Positions 6,194 to 37,551 of a DNA stretch of 64,000 bases are shown in pieces. The stretch is from Bacteroidales bacterium. GTDB taxonomy: Bacteria > Bacteroidota > Bacteroidia > Bacteroidales > UBA12077. Numbering within the stretch: the stretch's first letter is position 1; every line of letters starts with the position of its first letter. The DNA lies in contig OY762280.1 in assembly GCA_963665525.1 (NCBI GenBank), positions 3,597,410 through 3,661,409 on the forward strand. The letters are read 5' to 3'. The notes under the pieces were generated by a model. The model ran no database searches. It was not told the DNA's origin and saw only the letters and a program-made list of their open reading frames with translations. Made by a program: the position numbers and the translations under genes.

Positions 6194-6206
6194 TCCTGAT
6201 CATAAT

Positions 6207-7061: not shown

Positions 7062-7063
7062 TT

Positions 7064-11026: not shown

Positions 11027-12262
11027 TTAATAAAACTCAAAACCAATAATAGAAATATCGTCGAAAATGGCAGCATTATCTTCGAGAATTTTCTGTTGCT
11101 TAACTATAGTTCCTATATTATCATCAATATCCTTTGAATTGGCAATGTTCATTTCTATTTGCTTAGTTCCAAAACTTACACCTTCATCATCAACCAATTC
11201 AACTAAACCATCTGTATAGCAAAACAATTTCGATTTTTTTTCAATTTTAAGTGTGCCAAGTTTTAAAGTCGGAATCTCATCGAGCATGCCCATACCAACA
11301 CAACCATCCCGTAAGAATAGCAGATCTTTGTTCTCCATATTATAAAAAATAGGAGGATTATGTCCTGCATTAATATATTCCAGGGTATTTGATTTGTAAC
11401 TATAACGCCCAATAAAAAGAGTAATAAATTTTTCGCCTTTAGCACTGGCCATTACCCTTTCATTTAATTTTTCTATCAATTCTTGTAATGGTACTTTAGC
11501 CGTAAATAAGGCGCGTAAATTAGCCTGGAAATTTGACATTAATAAAGCTGCTGAAATTCCTTTCCCTGAAACATCGGCTATACAAAAACCTATTTCATCT
11601 TTGCTTAACTGGATAAAATCGTAGTAATCACCTCCAACTTCTAAATGCGGATGGTAGAATGTAGAAACAAGAATCTTTTCGTTATGTGGTAATATTGACC
11701 TGTCAGGAATAAGCATCGACTGCATCTTGGATGCCAGTTCCAACTCTTTCTTTAAGGCCTCTTGTTTTAACGATTCTTTATATAAACGAATATTTTCAAT
11801 GGCAACAATAATAATATTTGATAATGTTTGAATGAAATGAAGGTGTTTAATCGTAGGACTTACACCCTCCTTTTCTTCATCAATATCACCAATTAGAACA
11901 AATGCGATTGGGATATTATTATTAATGACCGGAATGATATTATCGAAAACTCTTAATGTTGGATTTGGCGATGCGGTAATAAAAGAAATTTCTTCATGTC
12001 CTAATAGATCCTTTTCAACATCTATTCGTTTGATAATCTCATTAGAACATCCTGAACTTAAAATTAAATCCCAATCTTTATCATATTTAAAGATCAGGAT
12101 TTTACCAATATTTAAATCTTCGCGAAGAATTTTCTCATAACGATGAAGCAATTCTTCGGTTGAAAGATTCTCGTTAATAGCTTTTGTAATAGTTAACAAG
12201 GTATTCAGCTTAAATGTCGAAAGCTTTAACCTGTTTATCGATGCTTTTCCGGCAAGGTCCAT
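11027..12262 (-). CDS. GAF-domain PP2C/SpoIIE-family serine phosphatase (RsbU-like)
   Basis: The C-terminal half contains GGDYYDF, ADVSGKGISAALLMS, NAGHNPP and YTDGLVE (SpoIIE/PP2C motifs). The N-terminal 170 aa or so look GAF-like. Confidence 0.8.
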   Translation of the reverse strand: MDLAGKASINRLKLSTFKLNTLLTITKAINENLSTEELLHRYEKILREDLNIGKILIFKYDKDWDLILSSGCSNEIIKRIDVEKDLLGHEEISFITASPNPTLRVFDNIIPVINNNIPIAFVLIGDIDEEKEGVSPTIKHLHFIQTLSNIIIVAIENIRLYKESLKQEALKKELELASKMQSMLIPDRSILPHNEKILVSTFYHPHLEVGGDYYDFIQLSKDEIGFCIADVSGKGISAALLMSNFQANLRALFTAKVPLQELIEKLNERVMASAKGEKFITLFIGRYSYKSNTLEYINAGHNPPIFYNMENKDLLFLRDGCVGMGMLDEIPTLKLGTLKIEKKSKLFCYTDGLVELVDDEGVSFGTKQIEMNIANSKDIDDNIGTIVKQQKILEDNAAIFDDISIIGFEFY

Positions 12263-14521: not shown

Positions 14522-14690
14522 ATAAATCCTCTTTTCTTCAGCTATATCAACAAAGATTAAACCTAAATAATAAATGCCAAATTTATGAAACATATCATTA
14601 GTAAAAGATTAATTTTTGATCTTTTTTATCCCATATTTATTTTTTAATTTAGTGAACTACAGGATCGACCAAAAATCTTATTTTATACCA

Positions 14691-17513
14691 ATGCGTAAAC
14701 CTATATTCTACTTTAGAAATAAAGAAATTAAAATTACTAACTTCTTTTTAACGCAAACTGTTGTAGTAATTAGTTCGATGTGTATTATTGCTGCTTTCTT
14801 TTGGATCAATGGTAAATATAAGAGCATGCAATCAGAACTAGACAGAGTTCAGGTTGAATATGTTCATTCACAGAAAGAACTTATTAAAAGAGAAACTCAA
14901 CATGCCATTAACGACATCAATTATTCAATCAAAAGAGCAGATCAGACCTTACGTAATAAAATAAAATTTCGCGTTTATCAGGCACATAGAATTGCATCCA
15001 ATATTTATAATGAAAATGTAGGTAAAAAGACTAATGCAGAAATTAAGAAACTTATTAAAGATGCTTTAAGACCTGTGGTTTACGACAACAAATATGAATA
15101 CATTTTTATTGCTTCATTAAACGGAACCGAAGTATTATTTCCCACATATCCAGAGTTGGAAGGTAAAAATGTGTATGACTATCAAGATGAATTAGGTCAT
15201 TATATCATGCAAGAAGAAATTAAAATTGTGACCACAAAAGGAGAAGGTTTTTCGGAGAGTCATTGGAGATATGCAGAAGAAGATACAATTACAGTTAAAA
15301 AGAAACTGTCTTATGTAAAACTTTTTCAACCTTTTAACTGGTATATTGGAACCGGCTGTTTTTACTACGATCATACAAAATCAATGAAAGATGAAATTTT
15401 AGCAAGTCTTTCAAATTATCGATATGGAAAAGAAGGCTATATTTTTGTTAACACCTATGATGGTGACGCACTCTTGATGAATGGTGAGATTGTGACTCAA
15501 AAAATGAATGCATGGGATTTAGAAGATGCTAATGGCATTAAAGTAATTCAAGAAGAAAGAAAAGCTGTTAAAAAAGCAGAAGGAGATTATATCTATTATT
15601 CCTGGAGAAGGCTTTCCGATTCTGTTATTATCCCAAAGATGTCGTTTATTAAAGGTATACCTGAATGGGAATGGATGGTTGGCACAGGAGTTTATTTAGA
15701 TGAAATCAATTCACACCTAAATTCCATTGAGACTGAACTAAAAAATAAAATAATTCGTGACATTAAATTTGTTGTTATTTTAAGTCTTGGAATATTTATA
15801 TTTCTATCATTAATAGCCATTTTTACCTCCAGAAAACTTAAGAAAAACATCTCCTTATTTATTCGGTTTTTCGAAACGGCAACTAAAAATTATAAACTCA
15901 TTGATAAATCTAAAATTGCATACTCAGAGTTTAATACTATTGCTGATTATGCTAATAAAATGATTACGAACTTAAAAGTTACTGAAACAAAGAAAAAGGA
16001 AGAACAAGCTCATTACAAAAAACTTTTTGATGAATCTATCGAAGCGATTGCTTTTGTTGATAAAGAAGAAAAAGTACAAAGAATTAATCAGGCTTTTACC
16101 AAGTTATTTGGATATACTATTGGTGATCTTAGAAATAAGAATCTCAATGATGTCATTGTTCCGAAAAAGTTTATTAAGGAAGCTTTAAATTATTCCAAGA
16201 ATTTTAAAGAAGGAACTTATGACGAAGTAGAAGCAATTCGCTATAATAAAGAACGTAAAAAAATTCATGTTGCCATAACGGGAGCACCCGTATTAGTTAA
16301 TAACCAAAACTTAGGAACATACATTGTTTACAGAAATATTACTAATCAAAAGATTTTTGAACAAGAATTATATACTGCCAAAGTAAAAGCCGAAGAATCT
16401 GATCGACTTAAATCTTCATTTTTAACAAATTTATCGCACGAAATAAGAACTCCTTTAAATGCTATTATAGGATTCTCAACGCTTTTAAATACAAAAGATA
16501 TTGGAGCTGAAGAACAAAAAGAATATTTGAAAATCCTTGAAAATAGTGGTAAATCATTGTTAGAAATTATCGATAATATTATTGACTTTTCGAAAATCGA
16601 ATCATCCACTTTAGTTATAAATAAAACCAATAATAATTTTAATGAATTATTAGATGAGATTCTTATAGATTATGTTGATTTTAAGAATAATATGAGTTTT
16701 GATAAAATCGATCTCAAACTAAAGAAAGAAGGTGAGCAAAATCATTTATTTGTATTTACAGACTTTAAAAGAATAAAGCAGGTATTTACAAATTTACTTG
16801 ATAATGCCTTTAAGTTTACTGAAAAAGGAGAAATATCGTTTGGATATCAAATTGAGAGTGACGATATTGTCTGTTTTGTAAAAGATACTGGTATTGGCAT
16901 AAATAAAGAAGAATTAAAATTTATTTTCGATCGATTTCGTCAGGTTGATGAATCCTCAACACGCAAATATGGTGGAACAGGTATTGGATTAGCTTTGTGT
17001 AAAAGTTTGATTGAATTGTTAGATGGTCGTATTTGGGTAGAATCCAATAAGAACGAAGGATCAACCTTTTACTTTACTATTCCACTTGCTGATCATGAAA
17101 ATGTTAAAAAGAAAAATCCGGAACAAAAAACGCTACAAGATTTTAACTGGTCTCATAAAAAAATTCTTATAGCCGAAGATGTTGAAACGAATTACAAACT
17201 ATTAGAAACAATCCTTTCAAGATCTAATGCTAAAATACTTTGGGCCAAAGACGGTAACGAAGTTGTTGAAATGGTTGAAATAAATACCGATATTGATCTT
17301 ATTTTAATGGATATTAATATGCCTATAATGAATGGCCATGAGGCTACCAAGATACTTAAAAGTAAAGGGCTAGAAATACCAATCATTGCACAAACAGCTT
17401 ATGCTACCGAAGAACAAAAAAATGAAATTCTTAGTATGGGATATGATGATTATGTTTTAAAACCCATAACATTCCAGGTGTTATTTCAAAAAGTATCTAA
17501 ATTTTTAGATTAA
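14691..17513 (+). CDS. Hybrid sensor histidine kinase/response regulator with a tandem single-Cache-type periplasmic domain (TM, 2x Cache, TM, PAS, HisKA, HATPase_c, REC)
   Basis: Two Cache-like repeats (YIFIASLNGTEVLFP...NWYIGTGCFY and GYIFVNTYDGDALLMNG...EWEWMVGTGVYLDEI). H-box LTNLSHEIRTPLNAIIG. DTGIGI and GGTGIGL motifs. Receiver ILIAEDVETNY...DLILMDINMPIMNG...LKP. The start is set at the ATG at 14691, because the track start at 14616 is a TTG. Confidence 0.88.
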   Translation: MRKPIFYFRNKEIKITNFFLTQTVVVISSMCIIAAFFWINGKYKSMQSELDRVQVEYVHSQKELIKRETQHAINDINYSIKRADQTLRNKIKFRVYQAHRIASNIYNENVGKKTNAEIKKLIKDALRPVVYDNKYEYIFIASLNGTEVLFPTYPELEGKNVYDYQDELGHYIMQEEIKIVTTKGEGFSESHWRYAEEDTITVKKKLSYVKLFQPFNWYIGTGCFYYDHTKSMKDEILASLSNYRYGKEGYIFVNTYDGDALLMNGEIVTQKMNAWDLEDANGIKVIQEERKAVKKAEGDYIYYSWRRLSDSVIIPKMSFIKGIPEWEWMVGTGVYLDEINSHLNSIETELKNKIIRDIKFVVILSLGIFIFLSLIAIFTSRKLKKNISLFIRFFETATKNYKLIDKSKIAYSEFNTIADYANKMITNLKVTETKKKEEQAHYKKLFDESIEAIAFVDKEEKVQRINQAFTKLFGYTIGDLRNKNLNDVIVPKKFIKEALNYSKNFKEGTYDEVEAIRYNKERKKIHVAITGAPVLVNNQNLGTYIVYRNITNQKIFEQELYTAKVKAEESDRLKSSFLTNLSHEIRTPLNAIIGFSTLLNTKDIGAEEQKEYLKILENSGKSLLEIIDNIIDFSKIESSTLVINKTNNNFNELLDEILIDYVDFKNNMSFDKIDLKLKKEGEQNHLFVFTDFKRIKQVFTNLLDNAFKFTEKGEISFGYQIESDDIVCFVKDTGIGINKEELKFIFDRFRQVDESSTRKYGGTGIGLALCKSLIELLDGRIWVESNKNEGSTFYFTIPLADHENVKKKNPEQKTLQDFNWSHKKILIAEDVETNYKLLETILSRSNAKILWAKDGNEVVEMVEINTDIDLILMDINMPIMNGHEATKILKSKGLEIPIIAQTAYATEEQKNEILSMGYDDYVLKPITFQVLFQKVSKFLD

Positions 17514-17537: not shown

Positions 17538-18260
17538 ATGCCTGAAAAAATTATTCGCGTTGATCGTATTGGGAATATTACTTTTCGTAAAAATAAAAGA
17601 TCAAAAAATGTAAGCATATCTATGCGACCTAACAAAGGAATCCTTGTCACTTTCCCTTGGTTTTTAACATACCAATTTGCCTTAAATGTTGTAGAAAAAA
17701 AGCGCTCTTGGATTCTTAATAACCTGCCAAAAATTAAACAGATAGAGAATAAAGCGACTATTTTTAATGAAAACATAAGTTTTAAGTCACGATCTAAACA
17801 TTTTCTTATTCAACAATCCGAAAGTGTAAAAAAAATTACAACAAGTGTCACCAGCAATCAGGTTGTTATAACTTATCCTCAGAATATCAACATTGAAACA
17901 CCAGAAAATCAAATCACAATAAAAAAAGCTATTGCTGAAGCTCTCCGGATCGAAGCCAAAAATTATTTACCTGGCAGAACATTAGAATTGGCTCAAAAAA
18001 ACGGATTTTCTTTTAATAAGATTTCCATTAAAAATACAAAAACTCTTTGGGGAAGTTGTTCTGTAAAAAACAATATCAATTTAAATCTACATTTAATTCG
18101 TTTGCCTGATTATTTAATTGATTATGTGATTATTCATGAACTTTGTCATACTATAGAAAAAAATCATGGCCAGCAATTCTGGAAACTTATGGACACTATT
18201 CTTGGCGATGCCAAAAAAATATCAAAACAACTTAAAGAGTATTCAATAGAACTTTATTAA
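17538..18260 (+). CDS. YgjP-like/DUF45 (M48-related) zinc metallopeptidase
   Basis: HExxH in YVIIHELCHTIEKNHGQQFW, plus KTLWGSCS, typical of the DUF45/YgjP family. Confidence 0.75.
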   Translation: MPEKIIRVDRIGNITFRKNKRSKNVSISMRPNKGILVTFPWFLTYQFALNVVEKKRSWILNNLPKIKQIENKATIFNENISFKSRSKHFLIQQSESVKKITTSVTSNQVVITYPQNINIETPENQITIKKAIAEALRIEAKNYLPGRTLELAQKNGFSFNKISIKNTKTLWGSCSVKNNINLNLHLIRLPDYLIDYVIIHELCHTIEKNHGQQFWKLMDTILGDAKKISKQLKEYSIELY

Positions 18261-18350: not shown

Positions 18351-20651
18351 ATGAAGATTAATGCAAAAATGTTGGTATATATCTTGTCGACATCAACACT
18401 CATTTTTATTGTTTCGATAGGATATATAACCACCAAGTCCAGACACATGGCTTTAGAAGAATCGCGTGAGGTTGCAAATCAAAATGCACATCAGTATGCT
18501 AACCTTATTAAATCAGAGTTAGCTTCGGATTTAAGCATTACCCAGACTTTAGCACAAGCCGGACAGGCATATCAAAAACTACCATGGAATGACTGGAATA
18601 AAATTTTCCTTGAACAACAATTGCATATTATAAACGAAAACCCTCATTATTTAGCCGTTGCAACAAGTTGGGAACTAGATCAAATTGATCCAACATGGGA
18701 TAAACCGTTTGGAAGATACTTAAATGGTTGGGTAAGAGATCATGATGGTCATATCAATCAGATTGAAACACAATTAAATACCGATGGTGATGATTTAACA
18801 GGAAATTATTATGCCATGAAATCTACCGGAATTTCTATGATTGTTGACCCCAAATTATGGTCGCCCACAGGAAAAGAAGAAGATTCGTACATCAATACAA
18901 ATATCTCAGTACCTATTAAGATTGGAAATACCTTTATTGGGTTAGCAGGAGTCGATGTTGATCTGCAAAGATTTCAGGATATTATTGTTAAGATACAACC
19001 ATTTAAAGATAGCTATGCTTTCTTAGTTTCAAACGACGGTACTTTCGTAGCCCACCCCGATAGAAAACTCATGGGTAAACTCATTCGTGAAGAAATGCCC
19101 GAATTAAATAATAAGTACGATATAGTAAATCAAATTCAGGCTGGCGCCAATTTTTCTTTCACACATACTAATACCAGTAAGCAAGATAATTTTTATGTTT
19201 TTGCTCCTTTAAAAATCGAAAACATTGAAACTCCTTGGTCACTAGCTATTGTTGTACCAAATAAAGTGATTACATCGAAAGCTTCAAATATTCTATACAA
19301 AGCATTATTAGTTAGTTTTATTGGTCTGTTGTTGTTAACAATCGTTATCTGGTATATTGCAAGAAACATAACAAGTCCGATTATTCGAGTAACCGAAATA
19401 CTTAAAAGTCTGGCAAAAGGTCAAATTAACAAATCTTTAATGATGAAGGTAGACTCCAAAGATGAAGTTGGAGAAATGACCGCAGCTTTAAATACTTCAA
19501 TCGAAGGATTAAATGAAAAAGCTGAGTTTGCAAATCAAATCGGGACAGGTAAAGTTGATTGTGAATTAAACTTATTAAGTAATGAAGATCATTTGGGGCA
19601 ATCATTAATTAATATGCGTAATAGTTTGTTAAAAGCAAGATCAGAAGAAGAAAAACGCAAAGAAGAAGATGGTAAACGTAGATGGATTAATGAAGGTCTA
19701 GCAAAATTTGCTGAGATTCTAAGAAAAAATAATGATGAGATTAAAATCCTGGCAAATGATGTTATCAAAAACCTGGTGAACTATCTTAATGCAAATCAAG
19801 GAGGATTATTTATCTTAAACGAAGAAGAAAAATCGATTGTTATGTATGATCTTTTAGCTGCTTTTGCATACGATCGGGAAAAACATCTTAAGAAACAAAT
19901 TGAGTTGGGAGAAGGTCTGGTAGGAACATGTGCTGCAGAAAAAAACACCATTTATCTCACTGAAATTCCTGAAGATTATATGCAAATTACTTCCGGTTTA
20001 GGAGATGCTAATCCTAAAAGCTTATTGCTGGTGCCATTAAAAACAGAAAATGATATTTTAGGTATTATCGAAATTGCATCATTTCATAAAATCAAAAAAC
20101 ATGAAATTGAATTTACAGAAATGGTTGCTCAAAGTATTGCCTCAACACTTAAAGCTGTGAGAATAAATACAACTACCTCGCAACTCTTAGAACAATCTCA
20201 GCAACAAGCCGAAGAAATGGCAGCACAAGAAGAAGAAATGCGTCAAAACATGGAAGAACTCCAAGCAACTCAAGAAGAATCAACAAGAAAAGGTGAAGAG
20301 TTTAGTGGCATTCTGAATAGTATTGACCAATTTCTTATCAAAGCTGAATTCAATTTAAATTTTGAACTTATAAATGCCAATGGATTGTTCTTAAGTAAGT
20401 TTAAATATAAAATGAATGAAATTGTTGGTAAAGAAGCCGAAGAGTTTGTAGTTGAAAAAGATTTAACAAAATTCCAAAAAATGATCAATACAGTTTTATC
20501 GGGAAATGCACAAAATGAGATAACAAATCTAAAAAATAAAGATGGTGATGAGTTAAAACTAATTACATCATTTACACCTGTATATATTGATGAAACTTTT
20601 GAAAAAATCTTATTCTTGGCAGTAGATATTAGTCAATATAAAAACTCTTAA
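18351..20651 (+). CDS. Sensor paralogue A: TM, periplasmic Cache-like domain, TM, HAMP, GAF, acidic coiled coil, PAS; no recognisable output domain
   Basis: TM1 LVYILSTSTLIFIVSIGYI. The periplasmic region of about 300 aa contains SWELDQIDPTWDKPFGRY and IGLAGVDVDLQRFQ. TM2 ALLVSFIGLLLLTIVIWYIA. HAMP ITSPIIRVTEILKSLAKG...EVGEMTAALNTSIEGLN. GAF NEGLAKFAEILR...ANQGGLFIL...GEGLVGTCA...LGIIEIASF. Coiled coil QQQAEEMAAQEEEMRQNMEELQATQEE. The C-terminal 120 aa or so are PAS-like. Confidence 0.8.
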   Translation: MKINAKMLVYILSTSTLIFIVSIGYITTKSRHMALEESREVANQNAHQYANLIKSELASDLSITQTLAQAGQAYQKLPWNDWNKIFLEQQLHIINENPHYLAVATSWELDQIDPTWDKPFGRYLNGWVRDHDGHINQIETQLNTDGDDLTGNYYAMKSTGISMIVDPKLWSPTGKEEDSYINTNISVPIKIGNTFIGLAGVDVDLQRFQDIIVKIQPFKDSYAFLVSNDGTFVAHPDRKLMGKLIREEMPELNNKYDIVNQIQAGANFSFTHTNTSKQDNFYVFAPLKIENIETPWSLAIVVPNKVITSKASNILYKALLVSFIGLLLLTIVIWYIARNITSPIIRVTEILKSLAKGQINKSLMMKVDSKDEVGEMTAALNTSIEGLNEKAEFANQIGTGKVDCELNLLSNEDHLGQSLINMRNSLLKARSEEEKRKEEDGKRRWINEGLAKFAEILRKNNDEIKILANDVIKNLVNYLNANQGGLFILNEEEKSIVMYDLLAAFAYDREKHLKKQIELGEGLVGTCAAEKNTIYLTEIPEDYMQITSGLGDANPKSLLLVPLKTENDILGIIEIASFHKIKKHEIEFTEMVAQSIASTLKAVRINTTTSQLLEQSQQQAEEMAAQEEEMRQNMEELQATQEESTRKGEEFSGILNSIDQFLIKAEFNLNFELINANGLFLSKFKYKMNEIVGKEAEEFVVEKDLTKFQKMINTVLSGNAQNEITNLKNKDGDELKLITSFTPVYIDETFEKILFLAVDISQYKNS
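20199..20279 (+). other. Invariant coiled-coil motif QQQAEEMAAQEEEMRQNMEELQATQEE (paralogue A)
   Basis: Read directly from the translation. The same 27-aa block recurs in B, C and D with synonymous codon differences. Confidence 0.9.
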
Positions 20652-20704
20652 TCATTGTTTGCGTAAAATAATTCGATATTTTAAAAAATAAAATTATACC
20701 TCTT

Positions 20705-23017
20705 ATGAAACTTAGGCTCGGTTTAAAAAATAAAATGCAACTGTACTTAATATCCTTGTCAGTTGCCATTTATGTTATTGCAATTGGCTATATCAGTATT
20801 AGTGCAAAAAAGACCACTTATCAGGATTCTGTTGAACTCGTAAATGCAAATGCCGAAAAATATGCGTATAAAATGCAATCAGATCTTAATGAATATATGG
20901 CCGTTGTAAGAACGTTGTCATCTGCATTTACCATATATCCTGAAATGTCGAGAGATGAATGGGAGCCTTTGTTTATTAAAATGTATGACAAAATTTATCG
21001 AAATAATCCTGCTTTTTATAAACTTTGGGATAGCTGGGAGCTCAATAAAGTGGATGAGAACTGGTATCAAGCTACTGGAAGAATTGCAAATGTTTTTTCC
21101 CGGGTCAACGGAACGGTTTTACAAAAACAGGATATTAGAAGCCTGGATGGTGATAACCCTACTTATGCTAATATAAAATCGAAAGCTAAGGAAATGGTTC
21201 TACCAATATATTTTGATGTGTTTACAGATGAAGGTGAAACCTCAAAATTAATGACCAGTCTTGTTACTCCCATTTTAATTGATCATGAGTATCATGGAAT
21301 GGTTGGTATAGATTTAATCCTAGAACGTTTTCAAAAAATGGTTGGGAATATAAATCTATCTCAGTTTCCTGGAAGTTATGCTGTGTTAATCACTGAGGAA
21401 GGAAAATATGCAAGTCATCCTCAATCAGAATTATTAAATCAAATGGCAGACTTTTCTTTAAAATCTCAGGAAGATTTTAATATACTTGAAGAAATTGAGC
21501 CCGGAGAAAGTTTCAACATTCTTTCTGTTGACAGTATAGGAAAAACACATTATGTTTCTTTTGCCCCAATCAATATAGGAAAAACAAATACTCCCTGGTT
21601 TTTAGCAGTTTCTGTACCTCTAAACTCCATCATGGCTCAAGCCGACAGAAACTTTATGATCTCCTTGATTGTAGGTATTATTGGCATCATGTTACTTAGC
21701 TTTGCCATATATATCATTACAAAAAATATCTCAAACCCTATACAAAGAATAACCGAGTTTTTAAAAGAGTTAGCTAAAGGAAAAACAGATAGTAAACTGA
21801 ATATTGATGTTACATCGGGTGATGAAATTGAAGAGATGACATTAGCACTAAAAACTTCAATTAATGGATTAAATTTAAAAACAGAATTTGCAAATAATAT
21901 TGGTAAAGGAAACTTAGAATATGAATTTAATTTACTTAGCGATGAAGACAAACTGGGACAGGCCCTAGTTAACATGCGCAATAGCCTTAGGCAGGCTCAG
22001 GATGATGAAAGTGAACGTAAGATCCAAGACGAAAAACGAAGATGGACCAATGAAGGACTTGCAAAGTTTGCTGACATCTTGCGCCAAAATAATGATAATC
22101 TGGATACGCTTTCCAATGAGATTATAAAGAACCTGGTCTATTATCTAGAAGCTAACCAGGGTGGGTTATTCATTCTCGATGATGAAGATAAAAATAATAT
22201 ATTTCTTGATTTAGTTTCTGCATTTGCCTTTGATAGAAAAAAATATCTCGAAAAAAGAATCGCATATGGAGATGGAATTGTAGGTTCCGTTGCTATAGAA
22301 AAACTAACCACTTATATTGAAGATCTACCTAACGAATATATCAAGATTATATCTGGTTTAGGAGGCTCTAACCCTAACGCACTGTTAGTAGTTCCTCTTA
22401 CATTGGAAGAAAAAGTTTATGGTGTTTTAGAAATTGCATCATTCAATAAATTTGAAAAATATCAAATTGAATTTGTTGAAAAAGTGGCTCGTGATATTGC
22501 AGCGACCTTATCATCTGTAAAAATTAGTATTCAAACCAATGAGCTACTGGAAAAATTCCAACAACAATCAGAAGAAATGGCAGCTCAGGAAGAAGAAATG
22601 CGCCAAAACATGGAAGAACTGCAAGCAACCCAAGAAGAAGCTGGGCGCAAAAATGCTGAAATGGAAAGTTTCCTTAGTGCCTTAGATAAGTCCAGTTGTA
22701 CTGTTGAGTACAACCCTGAAGGGTTTATAACTAAAGTTAACGACAACTATTTAAACCTTCTAAACCTAAACCTCTCTGAAGTTCTGGGAGTACATCATTC
22801 TGATAAGATGAAATTTACAACAAAGCAAAAAGAAGAATACGATAAATTTTGGGATGATTTAAGAAACGGAATCACAAAGAAAGAAAAAACAAGTTTTGTG
22901 GTTAGAGGCAAAGAAATAATTCTTTATGAGGTTTATACTCCTATTAAAGACGAAAATGACATCGTTAAAAGAATCCTTAAAATATCAAATAATATTAGTG
23001 ATTTTGAAGAATTATAA
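20705..23017 (+). CDS. Sensor paralogue B (same architecture)
   Basis: Collinear with A, C and D. WDSWELNKVDENW, HAMP NISNPIQRITEFLKELAKG...EIEEMTLALKTSINGLN, GAF RRWTNEGLAKFADILRQNNDN...ANQGGLFIL, the coiled-coil motif, and a C-terminal PAS (CTVEYNPEGFITKVNDNYLNLL...EYDKFWDDLRNG). Confidence 0.8.
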   Translation: MKLRLGLKNKMQLYLISLSVAIYVIAIGYISISAKKTTYQDSVELVNANAEKYAYKMQSDLNEYMAVVRTLSSAFTIYPEMSRDEWEPLFIKMYDKIYRNNPAFYKLWDSWELNKVDENWYQATGRIANVFSRVNGTVLQKQDIRSLDGDNPTYANIKSKAKEMVLPIYFDVFTDEGETSKLMTSLVTPILIDHEYHGMVGIDLILERFQKMVGNINLSQFPGSYAVLITEEGKYASHPQSELLNQMADFSLKSQEDFNILEEIEPGESFNILSVDSIGKTHYVSFAPINIGKTNTPWFLAVSVPLNSIMAQADRNFMISLIVGIIGIMLLSFAIYIITKNISNPIQRITEFLKELAKGKTDSKLNIDVTSGDEIEEMTLALKTSINGLNLKTEFANNIGKGNLEYEFNLLSDEDKLGQALVNMRNSLRQAQDDESERKIQDEKRRWTNEGLAKFADILRQNNDNLDTLSNEIIKNLVYYLEANQGGLFILDDEDKNNIFLDLVSAFAFDRKKYLEKRIAYGDGIVGSVAIEKLTTYIEDLPNEYIKIISGLGGSNPNALLVVPLTLEEKVYGVLEIASFNKFEKYQIEFVEKVARDIAATLSSVKISIQTNELLEKFQQQSEEMAAQEEEMRQNMEELQATQEEAGRKNAEMESFLSALDKSSCTVEYNPEGFITKVNDNYLNLLNLNLSEVLGVHHSDKMKFTTKQKEEYDKFWDDLRNGITKKEKTSFVVRGKEIILYEVYTPIKDENDIVKRILKISNNISDFEEL
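22559..22639 (+). other. Invariant coiled-coil motif QQQSEEMAAQEEEMRQNMEELQATQEE (paralogue B)
   Basis: Read directly from the translation. There is one substitution relative to A, C and D (A to S). Confidence 0.9.
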
Positions 23018-23029
23018 AAACCATCTTGA

Positions 23030-25336
23030 ATGAAAATAAAACTTAAAATCCAGCAAAAAATACAGTTATTTATTATCTCAACCTCGATTATTATTTATGT
23101 AATAGCTGTAGGTTATATTAGTCTAAATGCAAAAAAAATTGCATACACTGATGCCACAAACATTACGGATCGTTACGTACATGAAGCTGCCAATAAGGTA
23201 AAAGCCAATCTTGATGCAGATCTTACACTTGTAAAAACCTTGGCTGAAGCATTTCATACCTACAAATATCTTCCGAACGAAGAATGGCAAGATCTTTATT
23301 CAAAAATGTATCATGAAGTGTTCAAGAAAAACCCACATATTTATAGTCTCTGGGATAGCTGGGAACTCAATGCAATTGATCCTGAATGGGATCGACCAAC
23401 CGGACGATTTGTAATTATTTACTGGAGAGAAAATGGAGAAATAAAATTTAACTTCGAACAACGAAGCTTAGATGGAGATCCCGAATTGTATGCTGCTATT
23501 AAGACAAAGAAAATACCTTCCATTTGGGAACCATATGAAGATGTTTTTACTGAAAACAAAGCCGATAAGTTTTTAATGACCAGCCTCAATGCTCCAATCC
23601 TTGAAAACGGAAATTATGTTGGAATAGTAGCTATAGATATTACATTAGATCGATTTCAGGAACTTGTTGAAGAGATCAAGCCTTTTAAAGGAAGCTATGC
23701 ATATTTAGTATCAAACAAAGGGGCCATTGCAGGTCATCCTGATAAAGAACTTCTTAATGTAAACATTCAGGATCTTATTCCAGAGGATAATAAAAAGTAT
23801 GATATTATTAAAACTATTAGCCAGGGAAAAAGCTTAAGCTACACTAGTATTGATGAGAATGGAGTGGAAAATTATGTTTCTTATGCTCCAATATTTGTAG
23901 GTAAAACAGGAACCCCATGGTCTATTGCCATATCAGTTCCTGTGAAAACAATCATGGCTAAAGCAAATAGAAACTTTACAATATCTATGATTGTTGGCAT
24001 TATTGGCATTTTATTAATTGTTCTGGTAATAGCTTTTATAAGCAAAAATATCACGAATCCTCTTTCTAAAATAACAAGCTTGCTCAATAAGCTCTCAAAA
24101 GGACACATTGATGAGCAAATGAGGATCAAAATTGAAACAGGAGATGAAATTGAAGAAATGACAGATGCTCTGAATAATTCAATTGATGGTTTAAATAAAA
24201 AAGTAGATTTTGCTAATCATATTGGAAAAGGAGCATTAAATCATGATTTTGAATTATTAAGTGATGAAGATGTTTTAGGTAAATCCCTACTTAACATGCG
24301 CAATAGTTTGATGGAAGCCGAAGAAGAGGATAAGAAACGAAAAATTGAAGACGAAAAACGACGTTGGACTAATGAAGGATTAGCAAAATTTGGAGATATT
24401 TTGCGTCAAAACAATGACAACCTGGAAGAACTAGCAACTGAAATAATCATGAATTTAGTTGCTTATTTAGAAGCCAATCAGGGTGGTATATTTATTTTAA
24501 ATGATGATGATAAACAAAACATCCATTTTAATCTTTTGTCGGCTTACGCTTACGATAGAAGAAAATACATGAATAAGCAAATTCAGTTAGGTGAAGGATT
24601 GGTTGGGAATTGTGCCATTGAGAAAAAAACTGTATTTATGACGGATATTCCACAAGACTATATGGAGATTACTTCCGGTCTTGGAGGATCGAACCCGAAT
24701 AGCTTACTTATAGTGCCACTTAAACTCGAAGATGATGTTCTTGGAATTCTCGAAATTGCATCTTTTAATATATTTGAGAAACATGAAATAGAATTTGTTG
24801 AAAAACTTGCAGAAAGTATCGCATCAACATTATCTTCTGTACGAATTAACATTAGAACATCTGAACTACTAGAACGCTCACAGCAACAAGCTGAAGAAAT
24901 GGCTGCACAAGAAGAAGAGATGCGTCAAAATATGGAGGAGTTGCAAGCAACGCAAGAAGAGTCTACACGTAAAAGTGCCGAAATGGAAGGACTCGTTCAA
25001 GCTCTTAATATTTCAAGTTATGTAATTGAATACGATCTGGACGGAAATATTCAAAATGTAAATGATAATTATCTTTCATTATTAGGATTATCTAAAGAAC
25101 AGGTAATCGGCACTCATCATTCCGGTAATATGGATTTTACGGATCAACAAAAAGGTGAGTATGAAAAGTTCTGGAGAGAATTAAGAGCTGGAAATGTGAA
25201 AAAAGAAACCACAAAAGTGAAAATAAATGATAAGGAACTTATTTTTGCCGAAACATATACACCAATCAGAAATGCCGACGGAGATGTTTATAAAATCCTG
25301 AAGATTTCAAATAACATCACCGACTTTCATGATTAA
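23030..25336 (+). CDS. Sensor paralogue C (same architecture)
   Basis: Collinear with B and D. The start is 12 nt after the stop of B. C-terminal PAS ALNISSYVIEYDLDGNIQNVNDNYLSLLGLSKEQVIGTHHS...EYEKFWRELRAGNVKKE...YTPIRNADGDVYKILKISNNITDF. Confidence 0.8.
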   Translation: MKIKLKIQQKIQLFIISTSIIIYVIAVGYISLNAKKIAYTDATNITDRYVHEAANKVKANLDADLTLVKTLAEAFHTYKYLPNEEWQDLYSKMYHEVFKKNPHIYSLWDSWELNAIDPEWDRPTGRFVIIYWRENGEIKFNFEQRSLDGDPELYAAIKTKKIPSIWEPYEDVFTENKADKFLMTSLNAPILENGNYVGIVAIDITLDRFQELVEEIKPFKGSYAYLVSNKGAIAGHPDKELLNVNIQDLIPEDNKKYDIIKTISQGKSLSYTSIDENGVENYVSYAPIFVGKTGTPWSIAISVPVKTIMAKANRNFTISMIVGIIGILLIVLVIAFISKNITNPLSKITSLLNKLSKGHIDEQMRIKIETGDEIEEMTDALNNSIDGLNKKVDFANHIGKGALNHDFELLSDEDVLGKSLLNMRNSLMEAEEEDKKRKIEDEKRRWTNEGLAKFGDILRQNNDNLEELATEIIMNLVAYLEANQGGIFILNDDDKQNIHFNLLSAYAYDRRKYMNKQIQLGEGLVGNCAIEKKTVFMTDIPQDYMEITSGLGGSNPNSLLIVPLKLEDDVLGILEIASFNIFEKHEIEFVEKLAESIASTLSSVRINIRTSELLERSQQQAEEMAAQEEEMRQNMEELQATQEESTRKSAEMEGLVQALNISSYVIEYDLDGNIQNVNDNYLSLLGLSKEQVIGTHHSGNMDFTDQQKGEYEKFWRELRAGNVKKETTKVKINDKELIFAETYTPIRNADGDVYKILKISNNITDFHD
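24881..24961 (+). other. Invariant coiled-coil motif QQQAEEMAAQEEEMRQNMEELQATQEE (paralogue C)
   Basis: Read directly from the translation. Confidence 0.9.
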
Positions 25337-25367
25337 GAATACCTAACCCTAACCCTTACATAATACC

Positions 25368-27398
25368 ATGAAATTTAAACTTAAAATTCAACAAAAGATA
25401 CAGATGTTTATTATCTCGGCTTCCATTATAATATATATTGTAGCCCTTGGATACATAAGCTTACAGGCACGTAAAATGGCTTATAATGATGCCATAAATA
25501 TAACGGATCAATATGTTCAGAACTACGCAAAAGATATTGCAGATCAACTGAATTCTGATATGACTGTAGTGAAGACTTTATCCAATGCCTTTCTTATTTA
25601 TGAAACATTGCCAAAATCAGAATGGAAAAACCTTTTTAAAGAAATGTACTTAAAGGTTTATAGCCAATATCCGCATTTTAATTCTCTGTGGGATAGCTGG
25701 GAATTAAGTGCCATCGATTCAACATGGACAAAATCTCATGGTCGTTATGTAATGATGGTTGCCAGAGATATCTCCGGAAAGATAATTACTGATTCTAGCT
25801 ATAGAAGTATTGAAAAAGAATCTCAGATTTATGACAAGATTATTAAGAAAAGAAGAGTTCCTTCTATCTGGGAACCATATCTTGATAACTACGCTGTTGG
25901 AGAAAATGAAAGAAGTCTAATGACTACCTTAAACTCCCCGATAATGAATGATAATAAATATATTGGAATTGTTGGGATTGATATTAGATTAGACAATTTC
26001 CAACAAATTGTTTCAGAAATTAACCCTTTTGAAGGTAGTTATGCATACATGATTTCATACGGAGGACTTATTGCAGGTCATCCTAACAGGGAATATCTTC
26101 AGGTGAACCTTGAAGATGTATTACCTTATGACTTTGAAACGTATAATATTCTTAGAAATATTCAGTCTGGTAAACCATTTAGTTATACCAGCATAAATGA
26201 GGAGGGTTTAGAATTATATTATTCTTATGCCCCTATCATTGTTAAAGGAACGAATACGCCTTGGTCAATTGCAATCTCTGTTCCTGTTAAAACCATTATG
26301 GCAGCAGCAAATAAAAGCTTTCGCATTTCGCTCATTGTTGGAATACTAGGAATACTTCTTTTAGTATTTGTTATTGCTATCATTAGTAAAAACATTACGA
26401 ATCCATTAACTAAAATAACTAAACTATTAAAGTTGCTAGCCAAAGGACATATTGATGAGAAAATGCGAATTAAAATACACACCGGCGACGAAATTGAGGA
26501 AATGTCAGATGCTCTTAACATGTCAATTAATGGATTAAATAAAAAAGTTGAGTTCGCCAACCACATAGGTAAAGGAGAACTAAATCATGAATTTAACTTA
26601 CTAAGCGATGAAGATATTCTTGGAAAATCATTAATAGATATGAGGACCAGTTTAATTAAAGCTGATGAAGAAGATGAAAAACGAAAGATCGAAGATGAAA
26701 AACGCAGATGGACCAATGAAGGATTAGCACAATTTGCAGATATCTTACGCCAGAATAATGATAACCTGGAAGTTTTAGCTACTGAAATTATTATGAACCT
26801 GGTTAATTATTTAAAAGCTAATCAAGGTGGCTTATTCATTTTAAACGATGATGACAAACAAAATATTCACTTTAATCTACTCTCTGCCTTTGCATACGAT
26901 CGTAGAAAATTTATGCAAAAACATATTCAAATTGGTGAAGGATTAATAGGTACTTGTGCTATTGAAAAGAAAACCATTTTTATGACTGATGTGCCTCAAG
27001 ATTATATGGAGATAACATCCGGATTAGGTGGTGCAAATCCTGGTAGTTTGCTTATTGTTCCATTAAAACTCGAAGATGAGGTTTTAGGTGTAATAGAAAT
27101 TGCATCCTTCAATAAATTTGAAAAACATGAAATAGAATTTGTTGAAAAATTGGCTGAAAGCATTGGATCCACATTATCTTCTGTTCGAATAAATATAAGA
27201 ACGAATGAGTTACTTGAGAAATCACAACAACAAGCTGAAGAAATGGCTGCTCAGGAAGAAGAAATGCGTCAAAACATGGAAGAATTACAAGCTACACAAG
27301 AAGAAATGAAGCGAAAAGAAGATCATTTGAAAGAAATTATTAATAAACTAAAAGAAAAAGGCAACTTTAGTGAAGAAGATTTAGATTTTACTTATTAA
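25368..27398 (+). CDS. Sensor paralogue D (TM, Cache-like domain, TM, HAMP, GAF, coiled coil; lacks the C-terminal PAS)
   Basis: Very similar to C through the coiled coil (for example MKFKLKIQQKIQMFIISASIIIYIVALGYISL versus MKIKLKIQQKIQLFIISTSIIIYVIAVGYISL). It ends 31 aa after ELQATQEE with MKRKEDHLKEIINKLKEKGNFSEEDLDFTY. Confidence 0.8.
   Translation: MKFKLKIQQKIQMFIISASIIIYIVALGYISLQARKMAYNDAINITDQYVQNYAKDIADQLNSDMTVVKTLSNAFLIYETLPKSEWKNLFKEMYLKVYSQYPHFNSLWDSWELSAIDSTWTKSHGRYVMMVARDISGKIITDSSYRSIEKESQIYDKIIKKRRVPSIWEPYLDNYAVGENERSLMTTLNSPIMNDNKYIGIVGIDIRLDNFQQIVSEINPFEGSYAYMISYGGLIAGHPNREYLQVNLEDVLPYDFETYNILRNIQSGKPFSYTSINEEGLELYYSYAPIIVKGTNTPWSIAISVPVKTIMAAANKSFRISLIVGILGILLLVFVIAIISKNITNPLTKITKLLKLLAKGHIDEKMRIKIHTGDEIEEMSDALNMSINGLNKKVEFANHIGKGELNHEFNLLSDEDILGKSLIDMRTSLIKADEEDEKRKIEDEKRRWTNEGLAQFADILRQNNDNLEVLATEIIMNLVNYLKANQGGLFILNDDDKQNIHFNLLSAFAYDRRKFMQKHIQIGEGLIGTCAIEKKTIFMTDVPQDYMEITSGLGGANPGSLLIVPLKLEDEVLGVIEIASFNKFEKHEIEFVEKLAESIGSTLSSVRINIRTNELLEKSQQQAEEMAAQEEEMRQNMEELQATQEEMKRKEDHLKEIINKLKEKGNFSEEDLDFTY
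27225..27305 (+). other. Invariant coiled-coil motif QQQAEEMAAQEEEMRQNMEELQATQEE (paralogue D)
   Basis: Read directly from the translation. Confidence 0.9.
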
Positions 27399-27597: not shown

Positions 27598-28575
27598 TTA
27601 TTGACACTTAACAACATGTTCCATTTGATATTTTGCAGCTTCGGTATAATCACCTTTGTTTGCTTTTCCGTAAGCTTCACAAGCAGCAGCGTTATCTCCT
27701 TTTCCATAGTATGAATTACCCATTTCGAAATGAACTTTAGCATCTTTTGTATCCGTTTCACCAATGATTTCAAGAGCTTTGTTTCCTGCTTCGATTGCAG
27801 CATCCCATTTTGATTGCTTATTATAAATAACTGCTAATTGATAATAAATATCTTCGTCAGCATCTTTATAGTTCATTAAAGTATTGAAATATTTTTCAGC
27901 ATCAGTCCAGTTTTCACCTTTTACTGCATCAGCTCCAGCTACTAAATAAAAATTGCCAGCCAATTGTTTTGCAGTACCTTCCGATTTAGTATCATTCTTT
28001 GCAGCAGCAGCACTAAGGGCTCCATCGATAGCTTCTTTAAAGTTAGCTTCATCATTTTGATCTTTGTATACCTGTGCTTTTCTTACATATGACATAGGAT
28101 ATTTTGGATCCATTTCGATAGATTTATTTAATGCAACGATAGCATTATCATAATCTTTTGCACTGTATAAAGAAGCTCCTTTTGCATAATATAATCTTGG
28201 AATTGTTCTTTCTGCTTTGCTTTTCATTTTAGCATCATTATACGTTTCTGAATATTCAGCTAAAGTTCCAAAAGCAGCAATACACTCATCGTATTTCTTC
28301 TCTTTATAAAGACCCATAGCATATTTATATTGCATATTTGGAATTTGCGATACAGCTGTAGCTCTGTTTTCATTTTCAGTCTCTCCTAATTCATCATAAA
28401 TGCTAATACACTGTTTAAATGATTCTATAGCACCTAAATAATCTTTTGCTTGTGACTTAGCCACACCATCTTTTAATGCATCCACTGCTTCTGATGCCGT
28501 TTGTGCATTTACATTAACTGCAAAACCCAGTAATAATATCATTGCAGCTACTCTACTCATAATTTTGAATTTCAT
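27598..28575 (-). CDS. Secreted tetratricopeptide (TPR) repeat protein
   Basis: Signal peptide MKFKIMSRVAAMILLLGFAVNVNAQ (start moved to the ATG at 28575). Repeated 34-aa TPR-like units (YDNAIVALNKSIEMDPKY, WDAAIEAGNKALEI and others). Confidence 0.75.
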   Translation of the reverse strand: MKFKIMSRVAAMILLLGFAVNVNAQTASEAVDALKDGVAKSQAKDYLGAIESFKQCISIYDELGETENENRATAVSQIPNMQYKYAMGLYKEKKYDECIAAFGTLAEYSETYNDAKMKSKAERTIPRLYYAKGASLYSAKDYDNAIVALNKSIEMDPKYPMSYVRKAQVYKDQNDEANFKEAIDGALSAAAAKNDTKSEGTAKQLAGNFYLVAGADAVKGENWTDAEKYFNTLMNYKDADEDIYYQLAVIYNKQSKWDAAIEAGNKALEIIGETDTKDAKVHFEMGNSYYGKGDNAAACEAYGKANKGDYTEAAKYQMEHVVKCQ

Positions 28576-28729
28576 GGTAATAATTTTTTTAGTTATAGGA
28601 TTATGTTTCATTCTTTTCGGCTCTAAAAATATAAAAACGCTCTTAATAATAAAATTATTTTAAAATTAATTTGTTACATATATCAATTAATAACAATATG
28701 TTACATCGTTTTTAGGTATAGAAAATGAT

Positions 28730-29467: not shown

Positions 29468-30346
29468 TTACTTATTCAATGCCTCAGCACCACTAACAAT
29501 CTCTAAAATTTCATTGGTAATTGCAGCCTGGCGAGCTTTGTTATAGTTCAGTTGCAGCTCACGTATTAAATCGGCAGCGTTATCAGTTGCTTTATGCATA
29601 GCTGTCATACGAGCACCATGCTCAGCAGCTACAGACTCAAGAATAGCTTCATAAAATTGTATCTTTAGTGATCTTGGAATCAGTTCTTTTACAATGTATT
29701 CTTTCGTTGGTTCAAAGATAAAATCTGCATTTTCATTCATTTCAATATCATGAGGTAATTCAATAGGTAAATATTGTTCTGTCGATAAAATTTGAACAGC
29801 AGCATTTTTAAAACGATTATAGACTAAAACCACCTTATCATAATCTCCTACAATATAGCTCTCCATAATATCTTCAATCATAGGAGCAGCATTTGAAAAA
29901 CTCAGGTTCTCAAGAATCTCATTATTTACAAATAAATTTTTATAGCCTTTTGATTTATAAAATTCACTGCCTTTTTTCCCAATTGAAAATAAGGAAACAT
30001 TTCCTTCTTTATGTTCTCCGGCGTATTTCTCTTCAATTAAACTTATAACTTGCTTCGTAACATTGGCATTAAAAGCACCACAAAGACCTTTATTTGAAGT
30101 TATTGAAACAATCAGGATTTTTTCTGGAATCTCTTTTCGTGAATAGATATTTTCTTCTTCACCTTCGATACTTTTATTAATATTAAACAGAATTTGATGC
30201 AATTTCCCGGCATAAGGTCTAAGATTTATCACCGCATCCTGAGCTTTTTTTAGCTTCGCTGCAGAAACCATCTTCATTGCACTCGTAATCTGTTTTGTTG
30301 ATTTTACAGATGTTATTCGAGTACGTATTTCCTTTAAATTAGCCAT
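29468..30346 (-). CDS. atpG: F1 ATP synthase subunit gamma
   Basis: MANLKEIRTRITSVKSTKQITSAMKMVSAAKL ... ITNEILEIVSGAEAL are the canonical gamma termini. Confidence 0.95.
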   Translation of the reverse strand: MANLKEIRTRITSVKSTKQITSAMKMVSAAKLKKAQDAVINLRPYAGKLHQILFNINKSIEGEEENIYSRKEIPEKILIVSITSNKGLCGAFNANVTKQVISLIEEKYAGEHKEGNVSLFSIGKKGSEFYKSKGYKNLFVNNEILENLSFSNAAPMIEDIMESYIVGDYDKVVLVYNRFKNAAVQILSTEQYLPIELPHDIEMNENADFIFEPTKEYIVKELIPRSLKIQFYEAILESVAAEHGARMTAMHKATDNAADLIRELQLNYNKARQAAITNEILEIVSGAEALNK

Positions 30347-30349
30347 GTA

Positions 30350-31933
30350 TTACTCAGCTTTATATTTTAATGCTACCTCTTCGGCTACTTTTTTAATCGT
30401 TTTTTCAATATCCTCTGTAATCTTACCAGATTTTAAAATATCCATCGCATTTTTATGTTGCATTTCCATCATGTCTAAAAAGTCGCTCTCAAATTCTTTC
30501 ACCTTTTCAACCGGTATATCACTTAATAAACCATGTGTTCCACAATAAATAATTGCAATCTGTTTTTCTACAGCTACTGGTGAATATTGTCCTTGTTTTA
30601 GTATTTCTACATTCTTTGCTCCTTTATCAAGTACAGCTAAGGTAGCTGCATCCAGATCGGATCCAAATTTTGCGAAAGCCTCCAACTCACGATACTGTGC
30701 TTGATCTAATTTTAATGTACCAGCCACTTTTTTCATGGATTTTATTTGCGCATTACCACCAACCCTTGATACTGATATACCAACATTAATAGCAGGCTTA
30801 ACACCAGAATTAAATAAATCAGATTCTAAAAATATTTGTCCATCTGTTATAGAAATAACATTGGTTGGTATATAGGCAGAAACATCACCCGCCTGTGTTT
30901 CAATAATAGGAAGTGCTGTAAGCGAACCTCCTCCTTTAACTTTACCCTTTAAAGCTTCAGGAAGATCATTCATTTGTGCTGCAATCTCATCTGATTGAAT
31001 AATTTTAGCTGCTCGCTCTAAAAGTCTAGAGTGTAAATAAAATACATCTCCAGGATAAGCCTCACGTCCCGGTGGGCGACGTAATAATAAAGAAACCTCA
31101 CGATAAGCAACGGCTTGTTTCGAAAGATCATCGTAAATAATTAATGCTGCACGTCCAGTATCTCTAAAATACTCTCCAATACATGCACCTGCAAATGGTG
31201 CGAAAAACTGCAATGCAGCCGGATCAGAAGCTGTAGCACAAACAATAGTAGTATATTCCATTGCACCATGCTTTTCTAATGTGTCAGCAATATTAGCAAC
31301 TGTTGATCCCTTTTGACCAATTGCCACGTAGATGCAATATACTGGTTCACCTCTATCGTAAAATTCCCTTTGATTAATGATGGTATCAATTGCAATGGCT
31401 GTTTTTCCTGTTTGTCTGTCTCCAATAATTAATTCACGCTGACCTCTTCCTATAGGAATCATTGCATCAATTGGTTTAATCCCTGTTTGTATTGGTTCAT
31501 TTACTGGCTGACGATAAATTACACCCGGAGCCTTTCTTTCTATTGGCATCTCAATAAGCTCTCCACTTAATGGTCCTTTGCCATCAATTGGTTTACCAAT
31601 GGTATTGATAACCCTTCCTAAAACACCTTCACCAACATTGATTGAGGCAATCTTTTTTGTTCTTTTTACCTTATCTCCTTCTTTAATTTCTTCTGAGGAA
31701 CCTAGCAATACAGCTCCAACGTTATCCTCTTCCAGATTTAATACAATCCCTTTTTGACCATTTTCAAACTCAATCAACTCATTGGATTGTACATTGCTCA
31801 AACCATAGATTCTTGCAATTCCATCTCCAACTTGTAATACACTACCTACCTCTTCGAGTTCAGAATTTGTAGTAAAGCCTTCCAATTCCTTTTTTAATAT
31901 TTCAGAGACTTCTCCAGGTTTAATTCCAGCCAT
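30350..31933 (-). CDS. atpA: F1 ATP synthase subunit alpha
   Basis: Walker A GDRQTGKT. Alpha signatures [43 protein letters not shown]. Confidence 0.97.
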
Positions 31934-31951
31934 AGTATATAATTTAATGTT

Positions 31952-32515: not shown

Positions 32516-32527
32516 TAATTTTTCCCT

Positions 32528-33022: not shown

Positions 33023-33087
33023 AATTAGAATTTTTAAATTTAAAAAGCTTTACAGGCAGCCAACCGCTGCTCTGTAAAGCAAAATCC

Positions 33088-33345: not shown

Positions 33346-33372
33346 AATGTAAACTTTTAAGTGAATAAAACA

Positions 33373-34485: not shown

Positions 34486-34506
34486 ACTAAAATCTTTGAA
34501 TACATA

Positions 34507-34514
34507 CAAATTTA
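34507..34514 (-). promoter_or_regulatory. Candidate -7 box for atpB (TAAATTTG on the minus strand)
   Basis: The plus strand reads CAAATTTA. The box is 22 nt upstream of the ATG at 34485 and just downstream of the V-type operon terminator. Confidence 0.4.
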
Positions 34515-37490: not shown

Positions 37491-37551
37491 AATTTTTTAG
37501 TTATTAGTTTTTAGTTCATAGTTAAACTATGGACTTAAAACTGTGGACTAA

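Follow-up and report, generated by a model that had tools for sequence, protein, structure and literature searches.

How can four adjacent genes that encode membrane sensors, none with an output domain of its own, pass a signal to the cell? This question is raised by a locus in contig OY762280.1 of a Bacteroidales bacterium, of which we analysed a 64 kb stretch, called here the window. We propose, at a probability of about 0.45, that the four genes form an array of chemoreceptor-like sensors that are probably methyl-accepting, independent of CheA and signalling in trans, with a PP2C partner switch as the most plausible recipient. The array consists of the following features (TM, transmembrane helix).

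18351..20651, + strand: paralogue 1, 766 aa, dCache_1-TM-HAMP-GAF-acidic segment-PAS; the most divergent copy
20705..23017, + strand: paralogue 2, 770 aa, dCache_1-TM-HAMP-GAF-acidic segment-PAS; PAS weak by Pfam (20.1 bits)
23030..25336, + strand: paralogue 3, 768 aa, dCache_1-TM-HAMP-GAF-acidic segment-PAS
25368..27398, + strand: paralogue 4, 676 aa, without PAS; a helical basic tail after the acidic segment
27420..27453, + strand: terminator-like hairpin, a 15-bp stem followed by a T run, just 3' of paralogue 4

The coordinates of the open reading frames (ORFs) agree with an initial annotation of this DNA, which had described four consecutive same-strand genes of these lengths separated by 53, 12 and 31 nt. 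An alternative TTG start of paralogue 1 lies at 18294; homologues of 763-766 aa favour the ATG start. A scan limited to consensus patterns found the hairpin after paralogue 4 and no terminator-like site on the + strand between the array genes, as would be expected if they form one transcription unit.

Domains were assigned by searching the four proteins with Pfam and NCBIfam, and matches were considered down to E<=1. The dCache_1 domain, a double PDC fold between two transmembrane helices, scored 46.9, 42.5, 58.4 and 56.8 bits in copies 1-4 against a cut-off of 45, so that copy 2 falls below it, and its sequence matched PDB entry 9heh with an E of 4.7e-23. HAMP and GAF_2 (46-64 bits, Pfam GAF_2/GAF) were found in all four copies, while PAS_9 was limited to copies 1-3 (25.7, 20.1 and 42.4 bits) and the NCBIfam PAS model TIGR00229 exceeded its cut-off in copies 1 and 3. 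With either library, no match at E<=1 was obtained in any of the four copies for HisKA/HATPase, MCPsignal, GGDEF/EAL, cyclase, PP2C, STAS or HTH. An AlphaFold monomer model of paralogue 3, built from a 48-sequence alignment with a mean predicted local distance difference test score (pLDDT) of 79.6, comprises from N to C the double-Cache domain, a TM2-HAMP helix, a long helix and the GAF domain, followed by a helix at residues 584-617, a low-confidence stretch at 618-642, a helix at 643-662 and a five-stranded PAS sheet at 664-762, beyond which the model holds no further C-terminal fold and no hairpin. Comparison of this model with the PDB by Foldseek retrieved dCache ligand-binding domains of chemoreceptors or kinases alone (9heh, 7psg, 3lib and 6fu4, target TM-scores 0.75-0.80). 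A cryptic output fold at residues 640-770 was ruled out, as Pfam and the AlphaFold model both identify this region as a PAS fold.

The four proteins are thus dCache-HAMP-GAF-acidic-PAS membrane sensors without enzymatic output, in line with the Cache, HAMP and GAF calls, the PAS in three of four copies and the lack of a recognisable output domain that the initial annotation had reported. They are not sensor histidine kinases, having neither HisKA nor HATPase_c by Pfam or NCBIfam, and hidden Markov models (HMMs) made from the window's own kinases did not match the family. Nor are they SiaA-type/SpoIIE phosphatases, since none of the four matches SpoIIE, whereas fused relatives such as L037:8422-11031 (L numbers denote loci of relatives) do. 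The MCPsignal domain (PF00015) that defines methyl-accepting chemotaxis proteins (MCPs) had no match at E<=1, and only ~45 residues lie between GAF and PAS or the C-terminus. Within the PAS domain of paralogues 2 and 3 and their orthologues we observed a nearly invariant G-(T/V)-H-H-S motif (residues 694-697 of paralogue 3), absent from paralogue 1, which may be a metal or cofactor site.

Divergence was assessed from a codon alignment of the four copies as the proportion of synonymous differences (pS) and the amino-acid identity of each domain. Identity between copies was 29-54% in the Cache half, 56-87% in GAF, 77-91% in the 43-residue acidic region and 20-52% in PAS, so the periplasmic halves have diverged faster, as had been noted before. 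For each pair in each domain, the codons of the invariant motif included, pS was ~0.6-0.9, which means that synonymous sites are saturated throughout, and the ratio of non-synonymous to synonymous substitution (dN/dS) was well under 1 with dS saturated. Judged from these sequence comparisons, the array is an old duplication under strong purifying selection, which bears out the earlier interpretation.

A search of 1.84 billion representatives with a profile of the GAF-plus-acidic module yielded 17,004 clusters when matches up to E<=0.001 were admitted. At E<=1e-30 the family comprises 4,945 clusters and has its centre in Bacteroidales. Hallmarks of the family are the linker LSDED.LG..L..MR, RRW.NEGLAKF, a GAF domain with ANQGG and EIASF, and then the acidic signature AEEMxAQEEEMRQNMEELQATQEE; each of them is present in all four copies. 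The 150 best representatives are between 343 and 2,405 aa long, and local HMMs detected no kinase core, receiver or SpoIIE/PP2C domain in any of these 150 or of the 120 closest homologues; eight of the 150 analysed with Pfam contained Cache, HAMP, GAF and up to nine PAS domains and nothing else. The family is therefore very large and mostly output-less. The closest homologues are proteins of Bacteroidales and Marinilabiliales-like metagenome-assembled genomes with the same architecture and 766-771 aa, alongside a PAS-less orthologue type of paralogue 4 with 674-703 aa. We rejected the idea that paralogue 4 is a truncation, as its PAS-less form is a conserved orthologue. Existing names of homologues are 'hypothetical', 'GAF domain-containing' or, from the Joint Genome Institute (JGI), 'methyl-accepting chemotaxis protein', and literature searches by architecture, by motif strings, or for CheR with SiaC or Bacteroidota found no paper describing the family, consistent with the earlier remark that no characterised family was recognisable.

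What sets the family apart is the acidic segment, whose positions in the array are as follows.

20199..20279, + strand: acidic heptad motif QQQAEEMAAQEEEMRQNMEELQATQEE of paralogue 1, with EE pairs every 7 residues; EELQAT fits EExxA(S/T)
22559..22639, + strand: acidic heptad motif of paralogue 2, beginning QQQSEEM
24881..24961, + strand: acidic heptad motif of paralogue 3, the same motif as in paralogue 1
27225..27305, + strand: acidic heptad motif of paralogue 4, the same motif as in paralogue 1

A 27-residue core, QQQ(A/S)EEMAAQEEEMRQNMEELQATQEE, is identical in the four copies, with codons that differ at many third positions. Across the family, 320 unique first motifs gave the consensus LLExSQQQAEEMxAQEEEMRQNMEELQATQEE, most positions of which are conserved at >=80-90%. 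EE pairs occur at four positions 7 residues apart in 72, 99, 95 and 73% of 496 unique segments. Chemoreceptors are methylated at the consensus EExxA(S/T) (PMC1079850), and EELQAT, invariant in the four copies, agrees with it as a match of sequence. EExxA[ST] was found at a single fixed position in 386 of the 496 segments, with both x positions varying freely, and its density was 20.8 per 1000 aa within the segment versus 0.05 outside. Read by eye as a heptad repeat, the segment has M/M/L in one of its core positions and A/E/M/Q in the second, an arrangement that would leave the EE pairs on the surface. Thus, by sequence, the acidic motif is the most conserved element of the family and matches the methylation consensus, neither its role as family signature nor this match having been remarked in the initial annotation. 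A PDB search with the segment returned chance matches only and no MCP. In long multi-PAS relatives the motif is repeated ahead of each PAS. Giant relatives of 1,880-2,405 aa, soluble or membrane-bound (P0121, P0122, P0124, P0133 and P0142), have an almost invariant pre-PAS motif, AQEEELRQNMEELSATQEE, and by Pfam P0121 consists of GAF followed by up to nine acidic motif-PAS repeats with no output domain.

Gene neighbourhoods of the family were surveyed in one genome per species, giving 78 loci, almost all from Bacteroidales and including Perlabentimonas, Williamwhitmania, Tenuifilaceae and Marinifilum. ORFs were called, neighbours were clustered and recurrent clusters were verified with Pfam, a minority of the neighbour ORFs being annotated; SpoIIE/PP2C neighbours were detected with an HMM built from Pfam-verified domains. 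In a reverse test, the loci of five diverse CheR homologues, 65-86% identical to the query, were looked up one by one. This revealed that all five lie in the same operon with unrelated flanking genes. The operon encodes, in order, CheR, a family sensor (708-898 aa), a second CheR, CheB (185-186 aa) and a GAF protein (~260 aa), and continues in its 3' part with a GAF-acidic-PAS-PAS-SpoIIE phosphatase (~870 aa), DUF6272, SiaC and a TerB-ABC transporter. NCBIfam classes the phosphatase end as SiaA-like (E 1.5e-49) and the small protein as SiaC (E 6e-26); it places DUF6272 among the SiaB-family kinases, with 179.7 bits where the cut-off is 85. No MCP, CheA or CheW was found within 10 kb of the five CheR operons. 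Over the 222-residue GAF-acidic module, identity to paralogue 3 is 67-69% for the CheR-flanked sensors, which no other family member exceeds, and 38% for the fused phosphatase.

Fusion of the module to SpoIIE was also found in the survey (L037, L053 and L071), in proteins with two TM helices, the linker motif, GAF, the acidic motif (EELKENEEELRQNAEEMRATHEEL), two PAS domains and PP2C. Elsewhere, family genes are arranged head to head with genes for TPR-TM-SpoIIE proteins (L033, L052, L061, L069 and L082), and at L075 two family genes enclose another SpoIIE gene. A 170 kb contig of Perlabentimonas gracilis carries the operon and, apart from it, an 'orphan' family sensor, indicating that one CheR/CheB set can coexist with orphan receptors. 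The initial annotation, which remarked neither this operon nor the PP2C fusions, had left the output of the four proteins open; this stands in so far as they have no output domain of their own, and the operon and the fusions of their relatives now give a lead. As a further observation, the operon always ends in the TerB-ABC transporter fusion (~1,030 aa) at L085-L088, L090 and L091 and has no diguanylate cyclase in the place of SiaD; as a SiaD-like enzyme is absent, the target of SiaC may be the transporter.

In the mechanism that we propose, HAMP and GAF would relay ligand binding at the Cache domain to the acidic segment and PAS. By analogy with the operon of the relatives, we infer that the acidic segment is methylated, acting as a predicted methyl-accepting site for enzymes of the CheR/CheB type much like the methylation helix of MCPs, and that such enzymes would serve the window proteins. 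Output would occur in trans: the sensors would contact an effector bearing this cassette too, or form mixed oligomers with it, and the best-supported type of effector would be a SiaA-like PP2C phosphatase governing a SiaB/SiaC partner switch. The four copies would provide parallel inputs for different ligands into one pathway. The most specific form of this proposal, a CheA/CheW-independent methyl-accepting system of Bacteroidales in which CheR and CheB act on the EE and EExxAT residues of the GAF-acidic-PAS cassette, a SiaA-like PP2C/SiaB/SiaC switch follows and the four paralogues are a ligand-diversified array, is put forward tentatively, as a possibility on which we would not yet rely.

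Several results weigh against this proposal. CheR, CheB, SiaB and SiaC are absent from the 64 kb window, to which the search of this genome for them was confined, and window-type arrays have no CheR within 10 kb at any locus. CheR, as verified by Pfam, flanks a family sensor at only four of the 78 loci (L018, L037, L053 and L071), with a REC-less CheB following in L053 and L071, and because L037, L053 and L071 are closely related this adjacency amounts to two or three independent cases. Contexts of the family were varied, comprising the window type, Usp with a cyclase, a cyclic nucleotide monophosphate (cNMP)-binding histidine kinase, a YfiR-like gene, an M16 peptidase and SpoIIE. A C-terminal pentapeptide-like tether was looked for in the PAS-less tails, and none was found. 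Finally, residues 618-642, which hold the motif, are non-helical (pLDDT 51-64) in the monomer model of paralogue 3; of the acidic coiled coil described in the initial annotation, the invariance is upheld, but the helix is not predicted at these residues and the label comes from the heptad pattern of the sequence.

The alternative that survives best, which we nevertheless consider unlikely, is that the acidic segment is a structural, S-helix-like coupler of GAF to PAS that is never methylated, the proteins signalling through PAS/GAF contacts with a nearby kinase or phosphatase or acting as co-receptors. The segment does sit exactly between two sensor domains, and its recurrence ahead of each PAS in the multi-PAS relatives, the scarcity of CheR near most family loci and the wide differences between neighbours would all be expected of such a coupler. 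Against it, the x positions of EExxAT vary, whereas its A-T and the solvent-facing EE pairs equal the core positions in conservation, and the only possible substrates encoded in the CheR/CheB operon bear the motif.

A second alternative concerns the genes around the array, which is a conserved tandem unit of three to five genes at the same place in many Bacteroidales, a point that the initial annotation had not remarked. Related contigs have a YgjP-like gene upstream and a TPR gene, an AlbA_2 gene and the ATP synthase operon downstream. In the window, the neighbours are as follows.

11027..12262, - strand: SpoIIE/PP2C phosphatase, 410 aa, N-terminal half without an assigned domain; syntenic in L001, L006 and L013
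14616..17513, + strand: hybrid histidine kinase, dCache_2-PAS-HisKA-HATPase-REC
17538..18260, + strand: YgjP-like (WLM/SprT-like) metallopeptidase, directly upstream of the array; kept before nearly every window-type array
27598..28611, - strand: TPR protein, a conserved downstream neighbour on the opposite strand

That the four proteins are accessory sensors of the upstream hybrid histidine kinase (14616-17513), through PAS-PAS or membrane contacts, we regard as improbable. Co-sensors that modulate their kinases by contact are known, this kinase has PAS and REC domains, and the order kinase-YgjP-array is kept in a sister strain and ~12 close relatives. The kinase is, however, kept in the nearest relatives only: L001, L003, L005 and L006 retain YgjP and the array without it. 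It also has a dCache_2 sensor of its own and lacks the acidic motif, and distant family members have other neighbours. Both this kinase and the SpoIIE protein (11027-12262) are candidate partners of the array, although either link could be plain synteny.

Still less probable is that the array works with the YgjP-like metallopeptidase, for example with its members as ligand-gated regulators or proteolysis substrates. The YgjP-like gene lies ~90 nt upstream on the same strand and accompanies nearly all window-type arrays (17 loci), but the link is limited to one syntenic lineage and absent from all other family contexts, has no known mechanism, and is sufficiently explained by plain synteny, as the whole neighbourhood is conserved (TsaB, DUF3108 and ATP synthase). 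The idea that the array has no function, being either a set of histidine kinases that have decayed or been truncated or a product of misassembly, for which one might cite the fourth gene being split into 326 and 321 aa in the sister strain, is effectively refuted by conservation, given the dN/dS and saturated dS reported above, lengths conserved in hundreds of homologues and the presence of the array in many independent assemblies.

The sister strain (L089; ENA ERZ21869602, ctg94560l) is near-identical and carries the same array, with its fourth paralogue called as two genes at L089:12339-14368, one holding the Cache (326 aa) and the other the GAF domain (321 aa); this is either a frameshift error of long-read assembly or a recent pseudogene. 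Among distant relatives, L026:4009-12401, L047, L056, L057 and L064 combine a Y_Y_Y-adenylate/guanylate cyclase-HD protein (~1,230 aa), a tandem Usp protein, a single family sensor and an HD/HD_assoc hydrolase, a context that hints at a link to cyclic-nucleotide signalling and may bear on the GAF domain. The 281-aa neighbours of family genes are tandem Usp proteins by Pfam and not CheR. At L039:3317-3838, L031, L040, L055 and L063, a gene for a YfiR/HmsC-like periplasmic protein (DUF4154) lies just upstream of pairs of sensors (~645 and ~780 aa).

The region of the window is dense in sensory genes. It contains three hybrid histidine kinases (113-3397, 14616-17513 and 57129-59963), with dCache_3-PAS x3, dCache_2-PAS and no recognised sensor domain, respectively. 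Elsewhere in the window, Orn/Arg decarboxylase-like, arginase-family (agmatinase-like) and deoxyhypusine synthase-like genes at 4802-8038 (+ strand) suggest polyamine or homospermidine metabolism. The F-type ATP synthase operon adjoins a V/A-type ATPase operon (29468-34509 and 35116-41484, - strand), the latter with V_ATPase_I, A and B subunits and DUF2764, a pairing of F and V types also present in L003 and L005. A 968-aa ORF with no Pfam match (43606-46515, - strand) adjoins a gene for a protein with a type IX secretion C-terminal sorting domain (46520-47827, - strand).

If the motif is a CheR/CheB substrate, thousands of output-less GAF/PAS proteins, among them some that reach 2,400 aa and contain nine motif-PAS repeats, would gain a mechanism and a testable biochemical handle. 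Such a role of the motif would further imply that methylation-based adaptation can couple to Ser/Thr phosphatase signalling, and would give meaning to common proteins annotated as 'GAF domain-containing' or, wrongly, as 'methyl-accepting chemotaxis protein'.

Comparable coils are found in CheB/CheR fusion proteins, in which the enzymes are fused to the coil, an arrangement supported here through JGI names alone. A synthetic consensus of an EELQST heptad coil and the start of PAS_10 retrieved 4,034 proteins, the top matches of which all carry PAS_10 and are named CheB/CheR fusion proteins by JGI. These proteins share with the array family a heptad coil with EE pairs and EExx(A/S)T that is directly followed by PAS, and PAS_10 also occurs in multi-PAS family members; they differ in having kinase outputs and NEELQST repeats, as opposed to EEMRQNMEELQAT in the array family. 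That EELQST-type coils go with CheR and CheB is thus partly verified.

Among phosphatase-based switches, the closest comparison is the SiaABCD pathway of Pseudomonas aeruginosa (PMC7647112, PMC8457831). The Cache-HAMP part of the array proteins bears a weak resemblance to SiaA (NF038263, matched at E ~1e-8 to 1e-9 with a score well short of the cut-off), and the related operon codes for a SiaA-like PP2C, a SiaB-family kinase and SiaC. The window proteins, in contrast, have no PP2C domain, and the window lacks SiaB, SiaC and SiaD. We know of neither CheR/CheB nor a GAF-acidic-PAS cassette in the Pseudomonas Sia system, and literature searches found nothing relevant that joins CheR with SiaB/SiaC, or the SiaABC system with such a cassette.

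The closest precedent for an output-less Cache-HAMP receptor, as an analogy only, is a Cache_heme-HAMP receptor without intrinsic output that signals via a bound, separately encoded Ser/Thr kinase which modifies the receptor (bioRxiv 10.64898/2026.05.25.727664). That receptor ends at HAMP, binds heme c and shares its operon with a PknB-like kinase with helical repeat modules, whereas the array proteins continue with GAF and PAS. No Ser/Thr kinase was found among the Pfam-annotated neighbours of the family, which are a minority of the neighbour ORFs at the 78 loci.

By analogy, the array proteins are most like MCPs in how they would work. Shared features are the periplasmic dCache_1 topology, as in the chemoreceptor domains 9heh, 7psg and 6fu4, together with HAMP, heptad-spaced EE pairs with EExxA(S/T), several paralogous receptors per genome, and CheR and CheB encoded beside relatives. 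Lacking the MCPsignal hairpin, and hence a CheA/CheW site, they nevertheless fail the defining test of an MCP. They have GAF and PAS instead, and an acidic segment of ~27 residues on a single putative helix in place of a four-helix bundle. To our knowledge, adaptation by CheR/CheB has been described for no receptors other than MCPs with CheA as their signalling partner. Flagellar chemotaxis is largely missing from Bacteroidales, yet the CheR and CheB genes examined here sit inside a partner-switch operon. Taken together, the array and the operon of its relatives, in which a PP2C/SiaB/SiaC switch stands where CheA-CheY would lie downstream of an MCP, point to an undescribed wiring of bacterial receptors that is chemoreceptor-like in its input and has a partner switch as its output.

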